Below, in pieces: positions 3,319 to 13,989 of a stretch of DNA of 22,054 nucleotides. The notes under the pieces are model-generated. The model saw only the letters and a list, made by a program, of their open reading frames with translations, made no database searches and had not been told where the DNA came from. The stretch's first letter is position 1. Every line of letters begins with the position of its first letter. The stretch comes from Candidatus Thorarchaeota archaeon (GTDB lineage Archaea > Asgardarchaeota > Thorarchaeia > Thorarchaeales > Thorarchaeaceae). The stretch spans positions 32,407 to 54,460 of the forward strand of contig RDOC01000009.1 in the NCBI GenBank assembly GCA_011364985.1, given 5' to 3'. The translations under genes and the position numbers were made by a program.

Positions 3319-3510
3319 ATGCGTCCAAGATCAGAGTGGGTTATCTATGCTGGAGTCATGGCTTGTATAGCCTTGGCGATAGTTGGCGGATTCTCATATC
3401 CACTCATTGAACAGGGGCCAATGGCAATCATCCTATTCGAGACTCCTGTTCTTATTGGCATGATTGCCATTTTCATTTTGATATACAAGATGGGACCCCC
3501 AGGTTCCTGA
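3319..3510 (+). CDS. Small membrane protein, two TM helices
   Basis: 63 aa with two hydrophobic stretches (WVIYAGVMACIALAIVGGF; PVLIGMIAIFILIY); GGTGA upstream. Confidence 0.65.
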   Translation: MRPRSEWVIYAGVMACIALAIVGGFSYPLIEQGPMAIILFETPVLIGMIAIFILIYKMGPPGS

Positions 3511-3539: not shown

Positions 3540-3553
3540 GCAAACTTTTAATA
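3540..3553 (+). promoter_or_regulatory. Putative BRE/TATA promoter of the hdr operon
   Basis: GCAAAC followed by TTTTAATA about 60 nt upstream of the hdrC ATG; the only AT-rich box in this spacer. Confidence 0.5.
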
Positions 3554-3613
3554 TGGGACGGAATTTCGCAGTCGTCACACACAGCAGGTCGTGTCATCGG
3601 TGGTGCATACGCT

Positions 3614-4156
3614 ATGACTGAAACTGAAGAGAGAACTGGCCCCCCTGAAACACTAATCGAGCCAATTGATATGTCCAAGTTGGACCCGAAGTTTCGTAAG
3701 GAGATCCATAGTATGCCTAATGCTGAGGAGTTGTCCGCATGTTTTGCATGTACAACTTGCACAGCAGCTTGTCCAATTGCTAATCAATGGAATTACAAGC
3801 CACATCAACTAATCCGTATGATCTTGCTTGGAATGAGGGAAGAAGTCCTCTCTAGCAAGGAGATCTGGGAATGCCTTACGTGCTTCCAGTGTCAGGAACG
3901 TTGTCCACAGAAGGTAAAAGTCACGGATATCTTCTTTGACTGCAAGAACTTGGCTGCAGAAGAAGGCATAATTCCCCCCAATGTCCTGGCCCTAGGAAAA
4001 TCCCTTATTGAAAAGGGACAGCTGTATGAAGTACTCAATGACTGGGAACGGGAGGACTTGGACCTTGAAGCAGAAGTCCCAGGTTTAAACACTGATACTA
4101 TAAAGGAGATACTCCGAGGAACTCGGACTGGTCGACTTGTGGGAGGCGAGAAGTGA
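3614..4156 (+). CDS. hdrC: Heterodisulfide reductase subunit C (2x[4Fe-4S])
   Basis: CFACTTCTAACP and IWECLTCFQCQERCPQ.V motifs; P..LIRM..LG.REEVL; followed by hdrB. Confidence 0.93.
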   Translation: MTETEERTGPPETLIEPIDMSKLDPKFRKEIHSMPNAEELSACFACTTCTAACPIANQWNYKPHQLIRMILLGMREEVLSSKEIWECLTCFQCQERCPQKVKVTDIFFDCKNLAAEEGIIPPNVLALGKSLIEKGQLYEVLNDWEREDLDLEAEVPGLNTDTIKEILRGTRTGRLVGGEK

Positions 4157-4157
4157 G

Positions 4158-5024
4158 ATGCCAAGCTATAATCTCTATATGGGATGTAGTGTTCCAGCGA
4201 ACTATCCGAATTATGAAGCCGCAATGGTCAGGGTTGCTGAAGCCTTGGGAATGGAATTGAACTACATGGAGGGCGTCGCCTGTTGTGGAAGTCCCAATCT
4301 ACGGGCGTTTGACTACTTTGGTTGGCTTGTTGTGAATGCAGGAACAATTGCAATTGCCGAGAAGAACGGATATGACATAGTTACACCCTGTAATGGCTGC
4401 TTTGGATCTCTCAAGGATGTTCTAACTCACTTGAAGCACCACAAAGAAGACCTTGAGAAAGTAAATGTAGAACTGAAGAAGCACGGACTTGAGATGAAGG
4501 GTACTGTCAAGGTACGCCATATTGTTGAAGCAATGTACACTGATATTGGTATTGAAGAGATTAGGAAGAAGATCATAAAGCCGCTGGATGGAGTGGGAAT
4601 TGCTATTCACTATGGCTGCCATCTTCTAAGGCCAATTGAGGTGACCGAGTTCAATCCCGAGGTTCTACAGAAGATGGTTGAGGTGACAGGCGCAGAGGTC
4701 ATTGATTATCCTCTCTGGAAGCAATGCTGTGGAGCAACCGTTCTTCCTGTCAACGAGGAGCTGGCCATTAGACTCGCTCGCGATAAGCTGAAGTCTATGA
4801 AAGAAGCTGGTGCCACTTTTGTGACGGTTGTCTGTCCTGCATGTGGAAATCAGTTGGACTTGCAGCAGATTGGGTTGAAAGATTCATACGGAGAAGTCTA
4901 TGATCTTCCAGTGCTTCTCTACCCCCAGATACTGGGACTGGCTATGGGTATGAATGAGGAAGCAGTTGGTTTGGAGATGAACCGAGTTCCTGCAGATCCC
5001 ATCTTGGAGCATTTGACTGAATGA
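4158..5024 (+). CDS. hdrB: Heterodisulfide reductase subunit B (two CCG domains)
   Basis: YMGC..ACCG..TPCNGCF and HYGCHLLRP..QCCGA..VCPACGNQLD; both CCG motifs complete. Start re-called at ATG 4158, 1 nt after the hdrC stop. Confidence 0.94.
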   Translation: MPSYNLYMGCSVPANYPNYEAAMVRVAEALGMELNYMEGVACCGSPNLRAFDYFGWLVVNAGTIAIAEKNGYDIVTPCNGCFGSLKDVLTHLKHHKEDLEKVNVELKKHGLEMKGTVKVRHIVEAMYTDIGIEEIRKKIIKPLDGVGIAIHYGCHLLRPIEVTEFNPEVLQKMVEVTGAEVIDYPLWKQCCGATVLPVNEELAIRLARDKLKSMKEAGATFVTVVCPACGNQLDLQQIGLKDSYGEVYDLPVLLYPQILGLAMGMNEEAVGLEMNRVPADPILEHLTE

Positions 5025-5037
5025 GGTGAATACGTTA

Positions 5038-6288
5038 ATGTCTGACCCAGTTCTGGTCATTGGTGCTGGTGTTGCCGGAATGACCGCCGCCGTTGAACTA
5101 GCAGATAATGGGGTGCAAGTGGTCCTCGTTGATCGCAAGTCGACCATTGGAGGCAATGCTCTCAACCTCTATAAGGCATTTCCAACAGATGATTGCTTCT
5201 ACTGCTTCGAAGGAAATCGATGGCGTCCTGGTATCCGCAAGTGCTTCTACCGAAGTGCCATGATAGACCAGCCAAATATCGAGTTAATGACAAACACAAT
5301 TATACAGGACATATCTGGTACGCCAAGCAAATTTACTGTGAAGCTGGTCATAGGACCACAATACGTGGACCCAAAGAAATGCATAATGTGTGGTCTATGT
5401 GTAGAGGTTTCTGAAGCGTTTGCCCTTGAATCACCTCAATGTCAACCTCAGGCGGTGACGTACGATCCAAGCAAGTTGGATGAGGGAGCGAAGAAAGCAG
5501 AACAGGACTGCCCCACTAAGGCAATCTCATTGGATGCCAATCCGTCGGAGAAGACAATTACAGTCTCGGATATTGTTCTGGCGACCGGCTATCATGAGAT
5601 GCAGCCAGTAGCTGTGGATGAATATGGATACGGCGTTCTGCAGAACGTAATCACTCAACTTGAACTGGCCCGGATTCTCGACCCAAATGGACCTTTGGGA
5701 GGTAGGCTTGTTCGTCCCTCCGACGGGAGAGAAGCGAAACGAATAATGATGATTCAATGTGTAGGAAGCAGAGATGAGAATTACTACCCTTTCTGTTCGA
5801 AGATATGCTGTGTCTTTGCTCTCAAGCATGCCAATATCATAGCTAACGAGCGTGCGGATGGAAGGGTCAGTGTCGTCTATATGGATATAAGAACTTACGA
5901 CCGCCATGAGAGATACTACCGCGAAGCGCGAGAAGCGGGAGTTGAGTTTGTCAGAGGAAGGATCAGTCGAGTAGTATCAACAGAAGATGATACTCTGGAG
6001 ATCACTGTCTATGACTCACTCTTGGACAAGTATCTCCGCTTTTCCATAGATCTGCTGGTGTTGTCATCGGCTCTGGAACCCCCCGAAGGCTTGGATGAGA
6101 TTATTAAGACACTTGGACTCAAAACAGCCAGCGGCTATGTCGGACCTGCAGATGCAGCATCTGAGGACGAAGTTGTTGTGGGAGAACATGTCTATGCATG
6201 TGGAGGAGTCTTGGGACCTGCAGAGATCCCTGAGAGTGTGAACCAAGCTAGAGCAGTGGTTAGCAAGATACTCCAAGGGAGGAAGTGA
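5038..6288 (+). CDS. hdrA: Short HdrA-like flavoprotein (QmoA-like architecture: no N-terminal domain, no C-terminal ferredoxin)
   Basis: VLVIGAGVAG FAD motif at the N-terminus, FPTDDCFYC, inserted ferredoxin CIMCGLC...CP, QCVGSRD..CSKICC, YMDIR. Start re-called at ATG 5038 with GAGGTGA at 5023-5029. Confidence 0.88.
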   Translation: MSDPVLVIGAGVAGMTAAVELADNGVQVVLVDRKSTIGGNALNLYKAFPTDDCFYCFEGNRWRPGIRKCFYRSAMIDQPNIELMTNTIIQDISGTPSKFTVKLVIGPQYVDPKKCIMCGLCVEVSEAFALESPQCQPQAVTYDPSKLDEGAKKAEQDCPTKAISLDANPSEKTITVSDIVLATGYHEMQPVAVDEYGYGVLQNVITQLELARILDPNGPLGGRLVRPSDGREAKRIMMIQCVGSRDENYYPFCSKICCVFALKHANIIANERADGRVSVVYMDIRTYDRHERYYREAREAGVEFVRGRISRVVSTEDDTLEITVYDSLLDKYLRFSIDLLVLSSALEPPEGLDEIIKTLGLKTASGYVGPADAASEDEVVVGEHVYACGGVLGPAEIPESVNQARAVVSKILQGRK

Positions 6289-6294
6289 TGATCA

Positions 6295-8460
6295 ATGGGA
6301 AACAAATCTTCGGTTCTCCTCTGCACATGCGGCAAGCAGCTGAAGCTTGATTTCGATTTTCTCAAGGTCCAGGTTTCGAAACTTGGCCTAGCAGATTCAG
6401 TTACTGTGCACGATCTTCTTTGTCAGGAAGAGGGACTTGCTACCATTGAAAACCTGATATCCAAGAATGACGGAAGAGTTGTTATTGCGGCCTGTACAAA
6501 CCAGAAGATACAACCTCGAATTGAGCAGTATCTGCGTGCAAACGGCAAGGATCCATCACTAATTACCTATGTGAACCTTCGCGAACATTCTGCTTGGGTT
6601 CATGAAGACCTCAAGGAAGCCTCTCGGAAAAGCCTAGACATGATTCGAGGCGCCCTTGCAAGATCTGCGAAAGCAGTTCCGCTTCAATTGGAGAAGAAGA
6701 ACATTAAGAATCACGTCACTGTGATTGGAGGAGGAATTGCGGGACTAGAGTCAGCATTGAACCTTTCAGCACTCGGCTACGAGGTGGTCATATTAGAAAA
6801 AGCCGGAACATTAGGAGGACATGTTCTCGATCTTCCTATGGTGGCCCCGACTGGCAAATCAGGAAAAGAGATTTTGAAAAGTCGATTGGATGCAGTGGAA
6901 GCGAACAGTGGAATCACGGTTGTCACTAATGCAATGGTCAAGTATGTCGAAGGTGAGATGGGTGACTTTCGGGTACACTATATTGTAGGGGACAGTGAAA
7001 AGAAGTCCGAAACTCTTACTTCAGCAATCGTTATGGCAACGGGCTTCAAGGAATTCAAGCCAACAATGATGGACGAGTACAGGTATGGCAAGAATCCTGA
7101 TGTACTTACGCAATTGGAGCTCTCAAAGATGCTCTCCTTAGGAGCGCTGACACGTCCATCCAATGGTGAGACTGTGAAAGAGATTGTAATGGTTCAATGT
7201 GTAGGCAGTAGAAATGAGAACTATAAACGAGACTGTAGCAAACTGTGTTGCACTTTTGCAATAGATAACTCGTTGGAAGTTCTCAAGATGAGCCCAGATG
7301 CAACTGTTAGAATCGTATACATGGACATCCGTGTCCCCTTTGAGAACGAGATGATCTACAAGGAGTCGAGAGAAAAGGGAGTTGACTATATTCGAGGAAG
7401 AATCAGTATGGTCTGGGAGGAGAATGGACAGACTAAGGTCCGTATATATGACTCATTAATGAACAAGTATATTGAAACCACACCGGACCTTTTGGTGCTT
7501 TCCACGGCAATACTACCCCCAGAGGGGATTACTGAGCTCTCTGAGACTATGGGCTATGCAGTCGAAGATGATGGACATATCAAGGATCTATATGGAAAAC
7601 TAAGGCGCACTGAAACACGCCGGAGAGGTATTGTAGCAGCAGGCGCCGTTACCAGACCTCAGTTTGTATTTGAGGCGGTCACTGATGCACAGGCCGCTGC
7701 CTTGGTTCTACATAACGAACTGCAGGGAGGGGTCATTCAGAAAATTGCACGAGGCGCAGTTCTCAACGTGGACGATTGTGTGGGTTGCAGTCTTTGTGCT
7801 CAGCAATGTCCACGAGGGGTTCCCTTGATGATTGAACAGGCTGAAGCAGAAGAGCTAGATGAAGACCAGAAGTTTCTCTTCAAAGCAGCAATTGATACAT
7901 TGAATTGTCATGCATGTGGTGTCTGCCAGAGTCTGTGTCCTTCTGGTGCTACTGAGTTGAACTTCCTAACAAATGAACAACTGTGGGATGAGATTGATGC
8001 TGTCCTAGAAGGGGCTGGTCCTGAAGAGCCAATCACACTCTGCTTCTACTGTGAGGAATGTGCTGTGTCCACCATTGACATCGTGGGCACGAGAAGAATT
8101 CAATACCCAAGCAACAACCGACTCATTCCAGTTCCCTGTGCAGGACGCGTTTCGATTATTGATATTCTTCGTGCTCTTGAGAAAGGGGCTAGTACTGTCA
8201 TGATAGCCGCCTGCGAAAAGGATCGTTGTCATGCTGGCGGAACTGGTAATGAGATTGCGCAAATACAGGTGGATGTTGCCCAAGACATTCTGAATGCCAT
8301 TGGTTGGAAAGAAAAGCGTGTTGAGATGTTCAGAATGTTCAGCGCTGAACCGGAACGTTTCATCAAGGCAATTGAGGAGATGACGGAGAGGGCTAAGAAA
8401 CTAGGACCAACTCCAGTTCATGACGGAACAGCCGGCAAATGGGTGGAGGTGACCAAATGA
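6295..8460 (+). CDS. hdrA: HdrA-MvhD fusion flavoprotein (QmoB-like architecture)
   Basis: N-terminal CTCG..LC..AACT..NLREH.AWVH domain, VIGGGIAG, QCVGSR..CSKLCC, C-terminal CVGCSLCAQQCP and CHACGVCQSLCP, then MvhD [2Fe-2S] domain FYCEEC..YP..VPCAGRV..AAC...CH...GN. Confidence 0.92.
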   Translation: MGNKSSVLLCTCGKQLKLDFDFLKVQVSKLGLADSVTVHDLLCQEEGLATIENLISKNDGRVVIAACTNQKIQPRIEQYLRANGKDPSLITYVNLREHSAWVHEDLKEASRKSLDMIRGALARSAKAVPLQLEKKNIKNHVTVIGGGIAGLESALNLSALGYEVVILEKAGTLGGHVLDLPMVAPTGKSGKEILKSRLDAVEANSGITVVTNAMVKYVEGEMGDFRVHYIVGDSEKKSETLTSAIVMATGFKEFKPTMMDEYRYGKNPDVLTQLELSKMLSLGALTRPSNGETVKEIVMVQCVGSRNENYKRDCSKLCCTFAIDNSLEVLKMSPDATVRIVYMDIRVPFENEMIYKESREKGVDYIRGRISMVWEENGQTKVRIYDSLMNKYIETTPDLLVLSTAILPPEGITELSETMGYAVEDDGHIKDLYGKLRRTETRRRGIVAAGAVTRPQFVFEAVTDAQAAALVLHNELQGGVIQKIARGAVLNVDDCVGCSLCAQQCPRGVPLMIEQAEAEELDEDQKFLFKAAIDTLNCHACGVCQSLCPSGATELNFLTNEQLWDEIDAVLEGAGPEEPITLCFYCEECAVSTIDIVGTRRIQYPSNNRLIPVPCAGRVSIIDILRALEKGASTVMIAACEKDRCHAGGTGNEIAQIQVDVAQDILNAIGWKEKRVEMFRMFSAEPERFIKAIEEMTERAKKLGPTPVHDGTAGKWVEVTK

Positions 8461-10724
8461 GCAAGTCGAAGGATTTGGACCTCATGGCACCAAAACGCCG
8501 CCGAATGATGGATATGATCCTCGTCTTGGGAGGACTAAAAGAGGAATCTGCGATTCCTGCAAGCAGAGTAAGTAGCGAGCTTGAAAATCTCAAGACGGAG
8601 ATAGCGCCTCTAATCAATGAAACACTCGCATTTCCCAATGCCTACTTCTTGGAGCTTTCGGAAACAATTGAAAAGACAAGACTCCTCTCTCAAGTTTCGG
8701 ACAGAGCTCTACTTGCAAATGCAGTAGAGAAGCTCGATAAAGCTGTGGATGCGGCGAGTAACGATGGAATTGTTGGTCTACTTGAATTGCTAAAGACTGC
8801 GCTAAATAAATTAGTGGGCTCATATAAGACTACTACAAAGGAAACCAAAGTGGATATTGATGCAATTCTCAAATCACTTCCTGATATTGTCAATGGTCTT
8901 GAAGCAATTGTAGGAAATTTCGAAAACGCCTCAATTCAGGAAACAGAGGCAGCTGGTTCTGAATTGACAGCATTGACATCTGCCATTTCGGATGCCGCTG
9001 TAACGGTTCAGAGTGATCCTGAAGCCGCACTGGATACTCTTCAGAAGATTGGAACAAAGACAAGATACGGTCCGTTTCTCAGAACCTCAGCGCAAGTCAG
9101 GCGAGGAGTCCGAGAAGAACGTATTGGCGAGGATAGATTTCGACAGCTCCTCTCTACGAATATTCTCACTGAGTTGCGACGCGGTGTCATTATGTTTGTC
9201 TTGAGCAAGATGGGTTCGAAGACTGTCCTACAAATGTCGGACTTGATGAAGACCCCTTCAGTCGAGATTCAGGCTGCAATCATCAGCATGATTCAGCGTG
9301 GAGAGGTCGAGATGGTAGGTCTCGATCGTGATGCTCCGGTCTTTGCAAAGGTTCACGAAAGCGTTCCAGATACGACTCTAGTACTAAAGAGAGTCATACA
9401 GCAGATACGAGGGGTAGCAAAGACATTACAAGAATCTTCCAAGAAAGAAAACACTGGTTCGCTAGAACATCTAGAACAGCTCCTTCGTCGCTTGCAGAAA
9501 CTGGGCCAATACGATGAAACTGCACTTGCAGAACATATGAATAAACTGAGGGCTACTGCTGATGCTGCAACAGAAGCAGCGCTTTCAACTAGTGGTGATG
9601 AAACATCCGAAGACCTTAGACTGCTTATTTCTGCAGGACTTGAAGCTTTTGCCAGATTCAGACTAAAAATCGCTTTGGAGAAGGGACCCAGTCTCGTATC
9701 TGAAACCAATGTGTACGGAGAGAAACTTGATCCTGAAGTCTATGAGAAGATGATGTCGAGCTATCTTGATAATGAGATTGAGCGAGGAACGATTCTCATT
9801 CTGATTCGCGGGCTTGGTGCAATGACAGCAGAAGACCTTGCAAAACGAACATCGATACCGCAAGATAGGATTCTCCAACATCTACTCAGGATGAAACGGG
9901 ATGAGCTCCTGACGCTGGCTGGAGAAAAACATGGGTATGTTCTATTTGATGTACCAAGAACACCATCCGAGGCCGAGGTAGCCATACAAAGTGCTAGTGA
10001 TCTTGCACTTCAGCTTTCGCTGGCGAAGGCTGAGCTTGATATCGTTCTGGGAGACTTCAAAGCGGAATATATTGGCAGACTCGCTAATTCACTAGAAGCC
10101 GTTGCAAAGGCACGTGATAGATTGGAAAAAGTAACCGTTGATGGTGCTAGAGTCGGCGTATCAATCTTGAAGGCTGTAGAAGAAAGCGCAAGATCAGCGG
10201 TCGCATTGGCATATCGAACCCGAGCCAGATTACCAAGCACACGACCAAAGGTCACTCTTGAGGATCTTGAGAATGTGGATGTGCCTTCAGTCCTTGATGA
10301 GTATAGATCACAGATGGGATATGCTCCACTGCTAGGATTTGGAACAATAAACTGGGAGATGTCTAGGTGTCTGGGCTGCAAATCTTGCGAGATCTCATGT
10401 CCTGAGGATGCAATTGAACTGAAGCCAGTGATTGAATTGCCAAGACTCTTTGACTTCTCGGAAGAAGAGATGGGAAAGCTACCGATGAATAAATCCTTGT
10501 TCTATACGACAGTCCGGAATCTAGCTGTCGCAAAACCAGCAAGCAATATCACGCTTGACAGGGAGGCGCCGGGATTTGGTACTGTAGAAGTCGATCTTTG
10601 GCTCTGTGTTGCATGTCGAACTTGCGTGCGACGGTGTCCAGGTCCCGAAGATGGTGCCCTTGAGCTGGAACTCAAGTGGAATCTCCCCGAAGTGGTGCGT
10701 CATATTACTGCTGAAACTAGATAG
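8457..10724 (+). CDS. Uncharacterised multidomain protein: helical bundles, two winged-helix repeats, C-terminal 2x[4Fe-4S] ferredoxin
   Basis: ATG 8457 overlaps the upstream stop (ATGA), GGAGGTGA at 8445-8452; CLGCKSCEISCP and CVACRTCVRRCP; two wHTH-like segments align without gaps. Confidence 0.85.
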   Translation: MSKSKDLDLMAPKRRRMMDMILVLGGLKEESAIPASRVSSELENLKTEIAPLINETLAFPNAYFLELSETIEKTRLLSQVSDRALLANAVEKLDKAVDAASNDGIVGLLELLKTALNKLVGSYKTTTKETKVDIDAILKSLPDIVNGLEAIVGNFENASIQETEAAGSELTALTSAISDAAVTVQSDPEAALDTLQKIGTKTRYGPFLRTSAQVRRGVREERIGEDRFRQLLSTNILTELRRGVIMFVLSKMGSKTVLQMSDLMKTPSVEIQAAIISMIQRGEVEMVGLDRDAPVFAKVHESVPDTTLVLKRVIQQIRGVAKTLQESSKKENTGSLEHLEQLLRRLQKLGQYDETALAEHMNKLRATADAATEAALSTSGDETSEDLRLLISAGLEAFARFRLKIALEKGPSLVSETNVYGEKLDPEVYEKMMSSYLDNEIERGTILILIRGLGAMTAEDLAKRTSIPQDRILQHLLRMKRDELLTLAGEKHGYVLFDVPRTPSEAEVAIQSASDLALQLSLAKAELDIVLGDFKAEYIGRLANSLEAVAKARDRLEKVTVDGARVGVSILKAVEESARSAVALAYRTRARLPSTRPKVTLEDLENVDVPSVLDEYRSQMGYAPLLGFGTINWEMSRCLGCKSCEISCPEDAIELKPVIELPRLFDFSEEEMGKLPMNKSLFYTTVRNLAVAKPASNITLDREAPGFGTVEVDLWLCVACRTCVRRCPGPEDGALELELKWNLPEVVRHITAETR

Positions 10725-10803
10725 CGATTCAGAAACTTGAATATTGGATAAGGTCCATATACTAACTAGGCAGTAGTGGAGATACTGGTCTATTCAGCGA
10801 GGA

Positions 10804-12009
10804 ATGGCAATGGTTGACTTTAGCTACACAAAGGCACAACTCGATCTTCAAAGACGTGCACGTGAGTTCGCTCAGGAATATATGATTCCCTATGCTCATT
10901 ACTATGACAAGACAGGTGCATTTCCGCGACCTATCATCCAGAAATGCTGGGATGAGGGACTGATGAATCTTGCAATCCCAAAGGAGTATGGAGGACCGGG
11001 ATTAGGAGTAACAGAGCAATGTATTGCTGTTGAAGAAATGGCAGCAGGATGCGCTGGCATGACTACAAGTATTTACGTGAACACTCTTGGCGCAGAACCC
11101 ATTCTTATTGCAGGAAATAAGGAGCAGAAGGAGAAGTATCTTAAACCCCTAACTGAGGAACTCAAGTTTGTTAGCTTTGCTTGCTCCGAACCCGGAATAG
11201 GGAGTGATGTGGCTGGAATCGAGACCAGGGTTGAGAAGAAGGGCGACAATTATGTGTTGAATGGTGCAAAATTCTGGATCACCAATGCCCCTTATGCTGA
11301 TTACTTCACAGTCTTCGCCAGCTTGGACCCTAATCAGCGTCACAAAGCCCTGTGTGCCTTCATTGTTGATGCCGACACTCCTGGAATAAAGACGGGGCGG
11401 CCTGTTGAGAAGATGGGGCACCGAGCATCGACCACATCTGCGGTTATGTTTAGAGATGCTGAAGTACCAGCAGAAAACATACTTGGTTCTGAGGGAGAGG
11501 GGTTCAAGATAGCTATGCAGACCTTCGCTATGACTCGACCATCTATTGCAGCGTTCGCAACAGGTCTTGCCAAGGCAGCAATGGAATATGCTCGCGAGTA
11601 TGTGAATAAACGGGAGGCCTTCAATCAGAAACTGCGTGAGTTTGAGGTAATTCAGTTCAAACTTGCAGAGATGTACATGAAGATAGAAGCATCTCGTCTG
11701 CTCTATCTGAAAGCTGCATGGACTGCAGACAACAAAGAAGATTCCACTGTCCCCGCAAGTGTTGCGAAAGCAATTGCTACAGATGTAGCGATGGAGGTGG
11801 CAAGTGAGGCAGTACAGATCCACGGGGGCTACGGCTATATCGATCAATACCCTCTTGAAAAACTGTTTCGTGATGCAAAGCTCTACCAGATATATGAGGG
11901 GACCAGTGAGGTTCAGCGTCTAATCTTGGGTCGGTATGTGTTGAAGGGCTACAAGCCAGCCATGGAACAAATCCCGAAGTGGTTGAACGAGGCGCCCCCG
12001 AGCTTCTAA
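10804..12009 (+). CDS. Acyl-CoA dehydrogenase
   Basis: IPKEYGG.G, FACSEPG.GSD, LNGAKFWITNA, KMGHRAS.T, R.AF...L..F..IQFKLAEM, QIHGGYGY, YQIYEGTSEVQR with the catalytic Glu. Start may be ATG 10810. Confidence 0.96.
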   Translation: MAMVDFSYTKAQLDLQRRAREFAQEYMIPYAHYYDKTGAFPRPIIQKCWDEGLMNLAIPKEYGGPGLGVTEQCIAVEEMAAGCAGMTTSIYVNTLGAEPILIAGNKEQKEKYLKPLTEELKFVSFACSEPGIGSDVAGIETRVEKKGDNYVLNGAKFWITNAPYADYFTVFASLDPNQRHKALCAFIVDADTPGIKTGRPVEKMGHRASTTSAVMFRDAEVPAENILGSEGEGFKIAMQTFAMTRPSIAAFATGLAKAAMEYAREYVNKREAFNQKLREFEVIQFKLAEMYMKIEASRLLYLKAAWTADNKEDSTVPASVAKAIATDVAMEVASEAVQIHGGYGYIDQYPLEKLFRDAKLYQIYEGTSEVQRLILGRYVLKGYKPAMEQIPKWLNEAPPSF

Positions 12010-12129: not shown

Positions 12130-13989
12130 TTGGTGGCAGTGTCTTCTCATCGGGAACTGGTCTGTGCAGCGTTATTCTTGGTCATTCTTTTGCAACTGCC
12201 ATTGATGCCAGTTGTTGCATTGAGCACAATGACTCCACTGAAGTCAGGCCCATATATTGATTCACTGGTATTCGAGTATGAGCCTGATATGGATTCCCAA
12301 GTATTGCGCCTGCTCAATGGAGAAGTGGATGTCATTGGCGATGCAATAAACCCCGAGTACCTTACCGCCCTAGAACTCGCAGAAGCTATCGAGGTAGCAA
12401 TGACCGAGAACAATCTCTTTGGCTATCTCACGATAAACTGTGCGAAGTATCCGTATAACATCAGTGCCTTTAGAAGAGCACTAGCCATTGCCGTTGACAA
12501 GGAGTTCATCTGCAGCGATATTTGGGATGGCCTCGCCACACCTCAGGACTCTCTCCTCCCATCCATTTCATTCTGGTCTGCTGAGCCATATCTTGAGGAG
12601 AATTACTACGGCAGCGATATAGTACTGGCGAACCAACTGCTCGATGAAGCAGGGTTTATTGATATTGATGCGGATGGATGGAGAGAGGCTCCTGATGGAA
12701 CAGACTTTCATGTCACGATAGAGTGCTCTGTCACAGAATTAGAAGAACAAGTTGCAGAGACCGTTGAGGCAGCTTTGCACTTTCTTGATGTCGATGCAAC
12801 TGCACTGCCACAATGCTACTGGGATTACCTCACTAGAGTCGCCACCCATGGCGATTTCGATATGGCATATCTGGAAATAGTACCAGAGATTTATGATGTG
12901 AGTTGGCTGGCGTACAACTTCGTTTCTAAGTCAGCTGATATCCCCTATTTCAACTATCCAAACTTCAGAAATGAAACGTATGACTCATGGTTTAATCAAA
13001 TGATTCATTCGACACAGTACCAGAAAGTCTGGGAAGCATCAGTTGAGATGCAAAGAATCCTTGTTCATGAGTGTCCCATTATTGTGTGCTATGTAAGCCG
13101 TCAAATCTCGGCATATCGAGATGATGTATTTCAAGACTTTATGAACGATTTTGAAGCTGGGATAGGCAGCTGGTGGAGCTACTACAAGGCTAAACTAAAG
13201 GACACTAACAATGGCCTTTTTGGAGGCATCCTCCGAACCACAATGTCTATGGACATACCTTCTTTCAATTTCATGATCAATCCTGAGAAAATTGGATGGA
13301 ACGTACTTGGAGAAGCCTACGACTCCCTAATCAGAATTGGCCCCGATGGGAATGATATGGGATGGCTTGCGAAGTCGTACCTCATCGAAACTCACTCGAG
13401 CAACCCAGACATCTTCGAGGGGCATACTAGGCTAACGTTCAATCTTATAGAGAATGTCACCTGGAGCGACGGTACACCACTGACAGCCCTTGATGTGGCC
13501 TTCACTCTCAACTATTACCTTGATTGTACCAACAACAATCCCTATGCATCGGGGCTCCAAGATTTGATGGCAGCCTATGCTTCAGGAACATATGAGGTGA
13601 CAGTTGAGTTCAATACGGAGTCATATTGGCATTTGCACACCGTAGGGCTCAAGCCAATCATTCCGTTTCACATCTTTTCGGAGATTGGTCTTGAAGGTTG
13701 GGAGTCTTGGGCTCCAATTCCACCAGATGTAACACTAGTCACATCAGGACCTTTCACCTTCTCCTCTTACGAGGAAGGAAGTCAAGTGGAACTAGAGCAT
13801 AATCCATACTACTTCTATCGCCCCATTCATACAACTATTCCAACTACAACTACTACAACCACAACCACTACAACCTCGATTCCCGATTTCAACCTTATAG
13901 GTGGCATAGCGTTCGTCACCGGAGCAGTAAGCGTCCCTCTAATCGTTGTAGGAGCATTCTTCTTGAAGAAAGGAAGAAGTATGAACTAA
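12130..13989 (+). CDS. ABC transporter family-5 (peptide/nickel) solute-binding protein, circularly permuted, with C-terminal membrane anchor
   Basis: N-terminal signal peptide; GPYID.L.F, L.INC..YP.....FRRALA.A.DK, YDSL, WSDG.PLTA.DVAFT, TSGPF, L..NP.Y motifs; Thr-rich linker, TM helix and basic tail. Exact start uncertain. Confidence 0.88.
   Translation: MVAVSSHRELVCAALFLVILLQLPLMPVVALSTMTPLKSGPYIDSLVFEYEPDMDSQVLRLLNGEVDVIGDAINPEYLTALELAEAIEVAMTENNLFGYLTINCAKYPYNISAFRRALAIAVDKEFICSDIWDGLATPQDSLLPSISFWSAEPYLEENYYGSDIVLANQLLDEAGFIDIDADGWREAPDGTDFHVTIECSVTELEEQVAETVEAALHFLDVDATALPQCYWDYLTRVATHGDFDMAYLEIVPEIYDVSWLAYNFVSKSADIPYFNYPNFRNETYDSWFNQMIHSTQYQKVWEASVEMQRILVHECPIIVCYVSRQISAYRDDVFQDFMNDFEAGIGSWWSYYKAKLKDTNNGLFGGILRTTMSMDIPSFNFMINPEKIGWNVLGEAYDSLIRIGPDGNDMGWLAKSYLIETHSSNPDIFEGHTRLTFNLIENVTWSDGTPLTALDVAFTLNYYLDCTNNNPYASGLQDLMAAYASGTYEVTVEFNTESYWHLHTVGLKPIIPFHIFSEIGLEGWESWAPIPPDVTLVTSGPFTFSSYEEGSQVELEHNPYYFYRPIHTTIPTTTTTTTTTTTSIPDFNLIGGIAFVTGAVSVPLIVVGAFFLKKGRSMN
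13831..13875 (+). repeat. Low-complexity ACN codon repeat encoding the poly-Thr linker
   Basis: acaactattccaactacaactactacaaccacaaccactacaacc encodes TTIPTTTTTTTTTTT. Confidence 0.85.

Follow-up and report, generated by a model that had tools for sequence, protein, structure and literature searches.

An Hdr-type flavin/iron-sulfur operon of Thorarchaeota with a candidate Asgard-specific adaptor subunit

A probable five-gene Hdr-type operon

We analysed a 22,054-nucleotide stretch of DNA from Candidatus Thorarchaeota archaeon (assembly GCA_011364985.1, contig RDOC01000009.1, positions 32,407 to 54,460 of the forward strand; hereafter the window). Within it, a block of five co-directional genes encodes an HdrC-like protein, an HdrB-like protein, two HdrA paralogues resembling QmoA and QmoB, and a fifth protein of 755 residues, here termed X, and is followed by a gene for an acyl-CoA dehydrogenase (ACAD) (Table 1). 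The source metagenome-assembled genome is 1.7 Mb in size and 74% complete, which is the scope of every genome-wide absence given below, and the window is part of its contig C22. The close relatives of the window's proteins are records named Thorarchaeota or Promethearchaeota, and the archaeal replication genes PCNA, PriS and Gins51 lie 5′ of hdrC.

Annotation with Pfam and NCBIfam gave, for the six proteins in order, an HdrC-like protein with two [4Fe-4S] clusters, an HdrB-like protein with two CCG domains, an HdrA-type FAD protein, an HdrA fused to MvhD (FlpD), a protein matched only by a C-terminal ferredoxin, and the ACAD. The domains and cysteine motifs agree with the Hdr/Qmo-like redox system proposed in an initial annotation of this DNA, and its gene layout was borne out by the listing of open reading frames (ORFs) and by reading the junctions directly. 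hdrC and hdrB are 1 nt apart, with GGGAGG ~11 nt 5′ of the hdrB ATG; a 13-nt gap follows hdrB, with GAGGTGA before the ATG of the QmoA-like gene; 6 nt separate the two HdrA paralogues; and the stop codon of the QmoB-like gene shares the sequence ATGA with the start of X, a 4-nt overlap with GGTGGAGGTGA upstream. The ACAD start codon lies beyond a 79-nt spacer. A Shine–Dalgarno-like site was seen at each start within the five-gene block. Longer ORF alternatives began at TTG 4137, GTG 5026 and ATG 8439, and the shorter starts were chosen because they fit these sites and the lengths of homologues (288, 416 and 754–755 aa).

Because this arrangement recurs in every related locus examined, it is not a matter of chance. 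A conserved box resembling a B recognition element (BRE) and TATA box precedes only hdrC within the block: the element GCAAACTTTTAATAT, ~60–70 nt before the hdrC ATG, is near-invariant in 19 Thorarchaeota loci whose upstream sequence is otherwise divergent. We consider it probable that the five genes (3614–10724) are one operon and encode a soluble, cytoplasmic Hdr-type flavin/iron-sulfur complex, the formation of the complex being suggested by genomic linkage and by a structure model described below. Pfam and NCBIfam annotation placed no electron-transferring flavoprotein (ETF), Mvh, Fdh, Flx or Apr gene within the window, and Rfam and tRNA scans of it gave no match.

Table 1 Features of the hdr locus and of protein X (X residues are numbered in the 761-aa frame from 8439; subtract 6 for the 755-aa protein)
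Feature	Position	Strand	Remarks
hdrC-like gene	3614..4156	+	180 aa; stop TGA 4154-4156
hdrB-like gene	4158..5024	+	288 aa; ATG 4158; stop 5022-5024
QmoA-like HdrA paralogue	5038..6288	+	416 aa; ATG 5038
QmoB-like HdrA paralogue fused to MvhD	6295..8460	+	721 aa; stop 8458-8460
Fifth-subunit gene (X)	8457..10724	+	755 aa; ATG 8457-8459
ACAD	10804..12009	+	401 aa; all three ACAD domains; neighbouring gene, membership in the system conjectural
BRE/TATA-like element of the hdrC operon, GCAAACTTTTAATAT	3540..3554	+	conserved; putative promoter element
TATA-like heptamer CATATAC	10756..10762	+	48 nt 5′ of the ACAD start; putative promoter element
X, N-terminal helical bundle	to ~residue 215		AlphaFold2 model
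X, winged helix 1	residues 240-307, then helices		AlphaFold2 model
X, winged helix 2	residues 443-507, then helices		AlphaFold2 model
X, conserved linker	residues 601-631		disordered in the model
X, split 2x[4Fe-4S] ferredoxin	residues 633-750		~60-aa helical insert
X, long forms	L024:9995-13321 (Thorarchaeota HM4_FB6); G378:C151; G391:C52		inserted NfnB/GltD-like module
X, 972-998 aa form	P0195 / L049-L051		module replaces first winged-helix repeat

Two HdrA paralogues with complementary domains

The HdrC-like protein has two CxxCxxCxxxCP motifs (residues 43 and 87) and matches Fer4_8 and Fer4_17; against the HdrC model TIGR03290 it gave E values of ~1e-29 to 5e-29, which is below the equivalog cut-off. 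The HdrB-like protein carries PF02754 (CCG) twice and matches the HdrB model TIGR03288 at 3e-81, likewise below the equivalog cut-off, while keeping all ten CCG cysteines (10, 42, 43, 78 and 81 in the first set; 154, 190, 191, 226 and 229 in the second).

The QmoA-like protein aligns to residues 150–565 of solved HdrA (1.5e-73). It consists of the FAD (thioredoxin-reductase-like) domain, with GxGxxG at residue 9, and a reduced inserted ferredoxin domain with at most one complete cluster motif, and is without the N-terminal and C-terminal domains. The DCxxC (‘Cys197’) motif is kept as DCFYC, and the flavin-side lysine is kept in CCVFALK. The QmoB-like protein aligns to solved HdrA over residues 5–232 and 321–653 and also to MvhD chains (FlpD, 2e-33); it has the N-terminal cluster domain, the FAD domain, the C-terminal 2x[4Fe-4S] domain and a terminal MvhD, with their invariant cysteines. 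It is without the inserted ferredoxin domain, GKSGKEI replaces DCxxC, and CCTFAID has an aspartate in place of the flavin-side lysine. This is the pattern of a heterodimer, and the two flavoproteins are complementary HdrA halves. The families that they match best are HdrA2/HdrA, with scores far short of the equivalog cut-offs, and no Qmo model is best for either; ‘QmoAB-like’ is a fair name for the architecture of the pair.

Tandem HdrA genes of anaerobic methanotrophic (ANME) archaea (HdrA5/6 and HdrA12/13) have been described as complementary in this way with respect to the N-terminal domain and Cys197; such pairs are interpreted there as heterodimers in which the twofold symmetry of methanogen HdrA is broken (Chadwick et al. 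2022, PMC9012536). The Thorarchaeota pair appears to follow the same rule, and NfnB-like insertions are recorded for the ANME family too.

Compared with the methanogen HdrABC–MvhAGD complex (5ODC, 8RVU, 9SFI), the module has the same HdrB with two CCG sites, HdrC with two [4Fe-4S] clusters and MvhD as the entry adaptor, together with an HdrA-type FAD domain, an N-terminal cluster domain and a C-terminal ferredoxin domain. It differs in that HdrA is split into two complementary paralogues, one of them fused to MvhD; the single homodimeric HdrA of HdrABC, with its inserted two-cluster ferredoxin domain, is not found here, its domains being divided. There is no hydrogenase or formate dehydrogenase module in the Thorarchaeota operon, whose 755-aa adaptor/ferredoxin stands in their place, and all scores of the window's proteins against HdrABC equivalogs are below cut-off. 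McrA (MCR_alpha) had no match in the genome, so the heterodisulfide of coenzymes M and B (CoM-S-S-CoB) is unlikely as substrate. The genome-wide search also found no AprA above cut-off, and the two results support the earlier suggestion that this archaeon is probably non-methanogenic.

The architecture, and only that, is also shared with QmoABC and QmoAB–HdrCB, which combine a short, FAD-only HdrA-like protein with a long HdrA-like protein that has two [4Fe-4S] clusters and ends in MvhD. In sulfate reducers HdrCB can replace QmoC, and qmoAB-hdrCB arrangements are known in Gram-positive members, so that the operon could in principle encode a genuine Qmo-type complex (QmoAB with HdrCB for QmoC, as in Desulfotomaculum) that serves adenosine 5′-phosphosulfate (APS) reductase in dissimilatory sulfur metabolism. 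On one Lokiarchaeota contig, genes for ATP sulfurylase and APS kinase even follow the module at a distance of a few kb, but these lie on the opposite strand and are of the assimilatory/3′-phosphoadenosine 5′-phosphosulfate type. Moreover, the window operon has no membrane haem b QmoC (the only match to the qmoC model is in the ferredoxin part of HdrC, at 57 bits against a cut-off of 300), has no AprAB partner and has an additional fifth subunit. The best AprA match in the genome scores 49 bits (cut-off 642) and has a fumarate-reductase-like context, apr genes are next to none of the loci examined, and the best family matches are, as noted, HdrA2/HdrA rather than Qmo models. We therefore regard a true Qmo complex as very improbable. 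On these comparisons the system appears to work as a flavin-based enzyme of HdrABC type, bifurcating or confurcating, in which the HdrA pair is asymmetric; it is neither a methanogen HdrABC equivalog nor QmoABC.

A fifth subunit found in full only in Asgard archaea

Only ferredoxin families match X, at its C-terminus (Pfam and NCBIfam); there is no FlpD match, and no helix-turn-helix (HTH) family matches at E ≤ 0.01 (Pfam). Its description in the initial annotation, as an unrecognised iron-sulfur protein at the position of the partner module, thus stands. X has two CxxCxxCxxxCP motifs ~70 residues apart, and the eight cysteines are invariant in a 34-sequence alignment in which identity falls to 19%. 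With this 34-row alignment AlphaFold2 gave a model (predicted local distance difference test (pLDDT) 77, predicted TM-score (pTM) 0.41) in which a helical bundle is followed by two winged helices, a linker and a split ferredoxin (Table 1); a single-sequence prediction (pLDDT 37) was not used. Fold comparison (Foldseek, VIA-align wide) returned only winged-helix, helical-bundle and ferredoxin folds, and Foldseek against the Protein Data Bank (PDB) gave no match at E ≤ 0.001. A profile search of PDB sequences with X found ferredoxin motifs only, plus a weak match to the uncharacterised protein 5J5K (3e-4). Kinship to RPC62/RPC82, multi-winged-helix proteins of RNA polymerase III, was considered (1e-3 to 5e-2) and rejected at a TM-score of ~0.1. 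An ESM Atlas feature search with X gave no usable match, and its structure rows, clusters of FlpD with HTH (TM 0.2–0.5), were used as a lead only. Evidence that the two winged-helix modules are an internal duplication is marginal (BLASTP E 0.024).

Full-length X was found throughout the window's family (85/85 genomes) and in three other Asgard families (7/7 genomes), and in none of the remaining genomes of the 400 surveyed. Named records of its homologues are Thor-, Hel- and Lokiarchaeota, and an exhaustive phmmer search of 1.8 billion representatives gave 59 matches in total. Full-length X is, by these surveys, an Asgard-only protein. X-like modules do occur elsewhere, as C-terminal extensions of MvhD: metagenomic proteins that join FlpD to a helix/winged-helix region match X residues 385–497 (~1e-7 to 1e-3, phmmer), and a Bathyarchaeia protein with FlpD and a split ferredoxin matches residues 516–744 (1e-9, phmmer).

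X has three architectures within one archaeal family, all at the same operon position and with the same neighbours. Besides the 755-aa form of the window, there is a long form, with ORFs of ~1110–1160 aa, in which an NfnB/GltD-like module (Fer4_20 + Pyr_redox_2) is inserted after ~residue 211, and a form of 972–998 aa, seen in seven genomes of three genera, in which such a module takes the place of the first winged-helix module. Within one genus (g12) different species carry different forms. Sister Thorarchaeota thus seem to wire an NAD(P)H module into an Hdr-type complex, as in HdrL, NfnB-fused HdrA and NfnAB, with the difference that the module sits on the adaptor subunit rather than on HdrA and is missing from the X of the window. 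The ANME-1 NfnB insertion likewise lies inside the HdrA ferredoxin domain (PMC9012536), whereas in Thorarchaeota it is inside a separate adaptor subunit; a term search of that article found no mention of a winged-helix/ferredoxin subunit. No description of X was found in the literature on Hdr, Qmo, MvhD or ACAD in Thorarchaeota and Asgard archaea. What is new here is a stand-alone double-winged-helix/ferredoxin adaptor subunit, together with its NfnB-bearing variants.

X remains with the module when gene order changes

The order PCNA-priS-gins-hdrC-hdrB-qmoA-qmoB-X-ACAD is kept in ~25 Thorarchaeota loci. This shows collinearity rather than function, because unrelated replication genes are kept along with it. 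The Hel- and Lokiarchaeota loci are more telling: in 11/11 contexts the order is giant hdrA, hdrA, mvhD, a 93-aa gene, qmoA, qmoB, X, hdrC, hdrB, and the X homologues have 22–26% identity to that of the window. As X still stands next to the qmoAB-like pair and hdrCB although the order is permuted, X is tied to the module, and the ACAD does not travel with it. The synteny survey called for at the outset therefore had two outcomes: the qmoAB-like and hdrCB genes always flank X, and the ACAD flanks it in Thorarchaeia only.

One apparent exception, the locus L008, in which no hdr gene was seen upstream, was explained by a scaffold gap inside the QmoB-like gene. A 98-aa ORF after gins was compared with the 93-aa coiled-coil protein of the Hel- and Lokiarchaeota clusters and is not related to it.

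A second Hdr island was seen on contig C2 of the same genome (L061). Within 15 kb it encodes a double HdrA of 1188 aa that has MvhD at its end and is accompanied by hdrCB, an HdrA-like protein of 946 aa, and two more hdrCB pairs. Homologues of its two large HdrA proteins lie, in Hel- and Lokiarchaeota genomes, directly 5′ of the qmoAB-X-hdrCB module. A short FlpD/MvhD match at contig C15:3322-3603, over two frames or interrupted by TAG, may be a broken or fragmentary mvhD.

Predicted docking of X and a proposed route for electrons

We predicted a complex of the full QmoB-like protein with X residues 560–761 from author-supplied alignments, one pair being modelled with one chain as a fragment. 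The score was 0.81 in three runs, and the best of three controls scored 0.00; that mark was reached by 58/80 solved complexes and by 2/110 mismatched pairs, counts that are rough for alignments of our own making. The runs agree in at least 92% of contacts, with a partner pLDDT of at least 66. The predicted interface comprises residues 494–551 (C-terminal ferredoxin loops) and 620–717 (MvhD domain) of the QmoB-like protein, and residues 645–653, 681–713 and 727–738 of X (ferredoxin cluster loops and insert helix). The model supports, rather than shows, binding between X and the QmoB-like subunit.

In the class II benzoyl-CoA reductase BamBCDEFGHI, BamF is a long MvhD whose winged helix holds the input subunit BamI, as seen by cryo-electron microscopy, and BamE is a fused HdrA dimer with one lysine-liganded bifurcating FAD and one non-bifurcating FAD (bioRxiv 10.64898/2026.04.10.717634). 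The Thorarchaeota system resembles that enzyme in having a helix/winged-helix region by MvhD, an asymmetric HdrA pair with one lysine-liganded flavin, and a high-potential exit through CCG sites. It differs in that X is a separate polypeptide with two winged-helix repeats and a large N-terminal helical bundle, and in that MvhD is on the C-terminus of the QmoB-like subunit. The kinship of X is to the metagenomic long-MvhD proteins, while a partner-holding role is known for BamF only. If the likeness holds, X would extend the BamF finding, that winged helices by MvhD dock input modules, from one bacterial enzyme to an archaeal lineage.

We hypothesize that the core of the complex is an asymmetric HdrA heterodimer. 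The QmoB-like subunit would supply the N-terminal cluster domain, the C-terminal ferredoxin domain and the fused MvhD; the QmoA-like subunit would contribute what is left of the inserted ferredoxin domain, the cysteine motif needed to complete the N-terminal cluster, and the only flavin with the lysine found at bifurcating HdrA flavins. HdrC and HdrB would form the high-potential branch, ending in two complete CCG (non-cubane cluster) sites. X would be an Asgard-specific adaptor whose split ferredoxin docks on the MvhD and C-terminal ferredoxin domains of the QmoB-like subunit, the side on which hydrogenase or formate dehydrogenase feed electrons into methanogen Hdr, and whose helical bundle and two winged helices would serve as a protein-docking scaffold rather than as a DNA-binding regulator. 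The third redox partner would be NAD(P)H/NAD(P)+ in the sister Thorarchaeota with an NfnB/GltD-like module in X; for the 755-aa form it would have to be a separate protein or ferredoxin. The substrate of HdrB may be a disulfide, or a protein acceptor such as ETF, and the direction of electron flow, like the choice between bifurcation and confurcation, is a matter of inference. Because the kinship with MvhD extensions, the docking model and the NfnB-bearing variants agree, X is best understood as the attachment place for a third redox partner, and probably plugs an electron donor into the Hdr-type enzyme.

Iron-sulfur proteins with winged helix-turn-helix domains exist among transcription regulators, and the initial annotation had left open whether X is an adaptor or a regulator. 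A redox-sensing transcription factor, acting on the hdr operon or on other genes and not a stoichiometric subunit, would accord with the match of the X winged helices to MarR, TrmB, Z-alpha and TFE-type folds (Z 8–9), and some homologues of X have weak MarR, TrmB or ArsR Pfam matches and are so named in their source records. Against this, X itself has no HTH family at the threshold given above; its winged helices are neutral rather than basic (pI 6.5 and 6.9; whole X, 5.3); the ATGA translational coupling better fits a stoichiometric subunit; and its chain carries NAD(P)H-flavoprotein modules in relatives. The helix/winged-helix module is moreover fused to MvhD elsewhere and binds protein in BamF, and the X ferredoxin docks on MvhD in the model. 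We favour the scaffold role because of the near-neutral winged helices and the translational coupling, and the adaptor half of the earlier alternative is further strengthened by linkage across permuted gene orders and by docking on MvhD; the regulator half we think improbable.

Several points nevertheless weigh against the adaptor-fed bifurcating complex that we prefer. The glutamate of the LELER motif is kept in neither HdrA paralogue (alignments), so bifurcation is not assured. The pTM of the X model leaves its domain arrangement uncertain, and a neutral pI of the winged helices is also compatible with DNA binding. The docking score is the model's own confidence for one pair only and may borrow from solved Hdr/Mvh/polyferredoxin complexes. 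Neither a stand-alone NfnB-like protein nor an Mvh-type hydrogenase was found in the genome of the window, and no donor module for the 755-aa X was identified there; the sole NiFe large-subunit match was considered as Mvh and set aside, as it lies in a Nuo/group-4-like cluster.

Asgard archaea are the nearest relatives of eukaryotes known to date, and the module adds an uncharacterised, Asgard-only subunit to their repertoire. Their Hdr genes are reported to be abundant and highly expressed, and the substrate has been written as an ‘unidentified heterodisulfide’ (PMC11291895). Through the natural X variants that bear an NAD(P)H-flavoprotein module, the source of the enzyme's electrons could be tested directly.

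The neighbouring acyl-CoA dehydrogenase

In NCBIfam the ACAD is closest to acryloyl-CoA reductase AcrC and cyclohexane-1-carbonyl-CoA dehydrogenase, with neither match reaching its cut-off, and the genome has only one other ACAD (on contig C19). The spacer between X and the ACAD varies from 78 to 172 nt across loci and is otherwise divergent, but 23/23 Thorarchaeota loci have a heptamer (C/A)(T/A)TATA(C/G), or a near variant, 48–56 nt upstream of the ACAD. The heptamer keeps its distance from this start codon and not from the X stop, and the heptamer at 10756–10762 is a probable separate promoter for the ACAD. The ACAD is most likely a separately transcribed neighbour. No T-run terminator was seen after X, so some transcripts may read through from X into the ACAD.

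The initial annotation had suggested a coupling of the complex to this dehydrogenase and had noted that there is no ETF, a statement that holds for the window and fails for the genome. On contig C18 (L059:6892-8883, minus strand) etfB lies together with etfA, whose product carries a fused 2x[4Fe-4S] ferredoxin domain at its N-terminus; the pair is isolated, and no gene for an ACAD, FixCX or an HdrD-like protein adjoins it. On contig C1 (L062:1364-8817) two HGD-D 2-hydroxyacyl-CoA dehydratase subunits and a BcrAD/BadFG-type activator are encoded directly 5′ of, and on the same strand as, a Nuo/group-4 [NiFe]-hydrogenase-like cluster with NuoB-, C-, D-, H- and I-like genes, an arrangement that may link amino-acid fermentation to a membrane complex. 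Acyl-CoA redox chemistry is thus present in the genome, given the genes for EtfAB, a second ACAD and 2-hydroxyacyl-CoA dehydratase.

The complex could then exchange electrons with an acyl-CoA/enoyl-CoA couple, the ACAD passing them via EtfAB to or from the non-cubane clusters of HdrB. In that case it would act not as a disulfide reductase but as an oxidoreductase that is linked to ETF and bifurcates or confurcates electrons. In 23/23 Thorarchaeota loci that extend far enough X is followed next by the ACAD, NfnB-bearing variants included, no T-run terminator lies 3′ of X, the genome encodes EtfAB with a ferredoxin-fused EtfA and only two ACADs, and its 2-hydroxyacyl-CoA dehydratase genes would produce enoyl-CoA. 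There is also a precedent, which makes a link from HdrB to ETF and ACAD chemically plausible: from BamD, the CCG protein of the class II benzoyl-CoA reductase, the high-potential electron goes to ETF, and ETF is able in turn to drive butyryl-CoA dehydrogenase (bioRxiv 10.64898/2026.04.10.717634).

Several observations speak against this coupling. ACAD and ETF are absent from the flanks in 11/11 Hel- and Lokiarchaeota contexts of the module; synteny in Thorarchaeota keeps the unrelated PCNA, priS and gins equally, so that adjacency of the ACAD may be mere collinearity; the ACAD has its own positionally conserved TATA-like box; and etfAB lie on another contig, apart from both the module and the ACAD. 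A ferredoxin-fused EtfA is, further, the usual form in ETFs that carry out bifurcation themselves together with their dehydrogenase, as in CarE and LctC, and HdrB keeps the ten cysteines of a disulfide-reducing site. We consider an exchange with the acyl-CoA couple unlikely. By analogy with BamD, one could go on to propose an ETF-linked enzyme in which the HdrB clusters exchange electrons with EtfAB and the adjacent Bcd-type ACAD while the adaptor links the flavin to NAD(P)H, in the NfnB-bearing forms, or to another carrier; this fuller scheme is a shade more doubtful again. If it were true, these quinone-poor archaea would gain a soluble route for balancing acyl-CoA/enoyl-CoA redox against ferredoxin that involves no heterodisulfide.

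The ACAD link suggested earlier is hence not supported, its adjacency being confined to collinear Thorarchaeia (own TATA-like box in 23/23 loci). Of the two findings that together were to refute the earlier proposal, an ACAD unlinked to the module was encountered, while X was found neither independently of hdr genes nor as a known subunit. ACAD coupling is without comparative support, yet the BamD–ETF precedent keeps the idea of interest.

Other features of the window

Between the putative hdrC promoter and the 98-aa ORF that follows gins lies a 63-aa hydrophobic ORF (window 3319-3510), in which two membrane-like helices can be predicted by eye; the locus L049 has a gene call of 63 aa at the corresponding place. 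A scan for bacterial-type terminators, a model not applicable to archaea, marked a hairpin followed by a T-run at 3456-3479.

On the other side of the module, a family-5 solute-binding protein (window 12130-13989) lies between the ACAD and a cupin gene in the window and in the locus L012, and is not at this place in most Thorarchaeota loci. It looks circularly permuted: residues 39–268 match the back half of the SBP_bac_5 profile (144–364), and residues 424–567 match the front part (51–193) of a related NCBIfam model.

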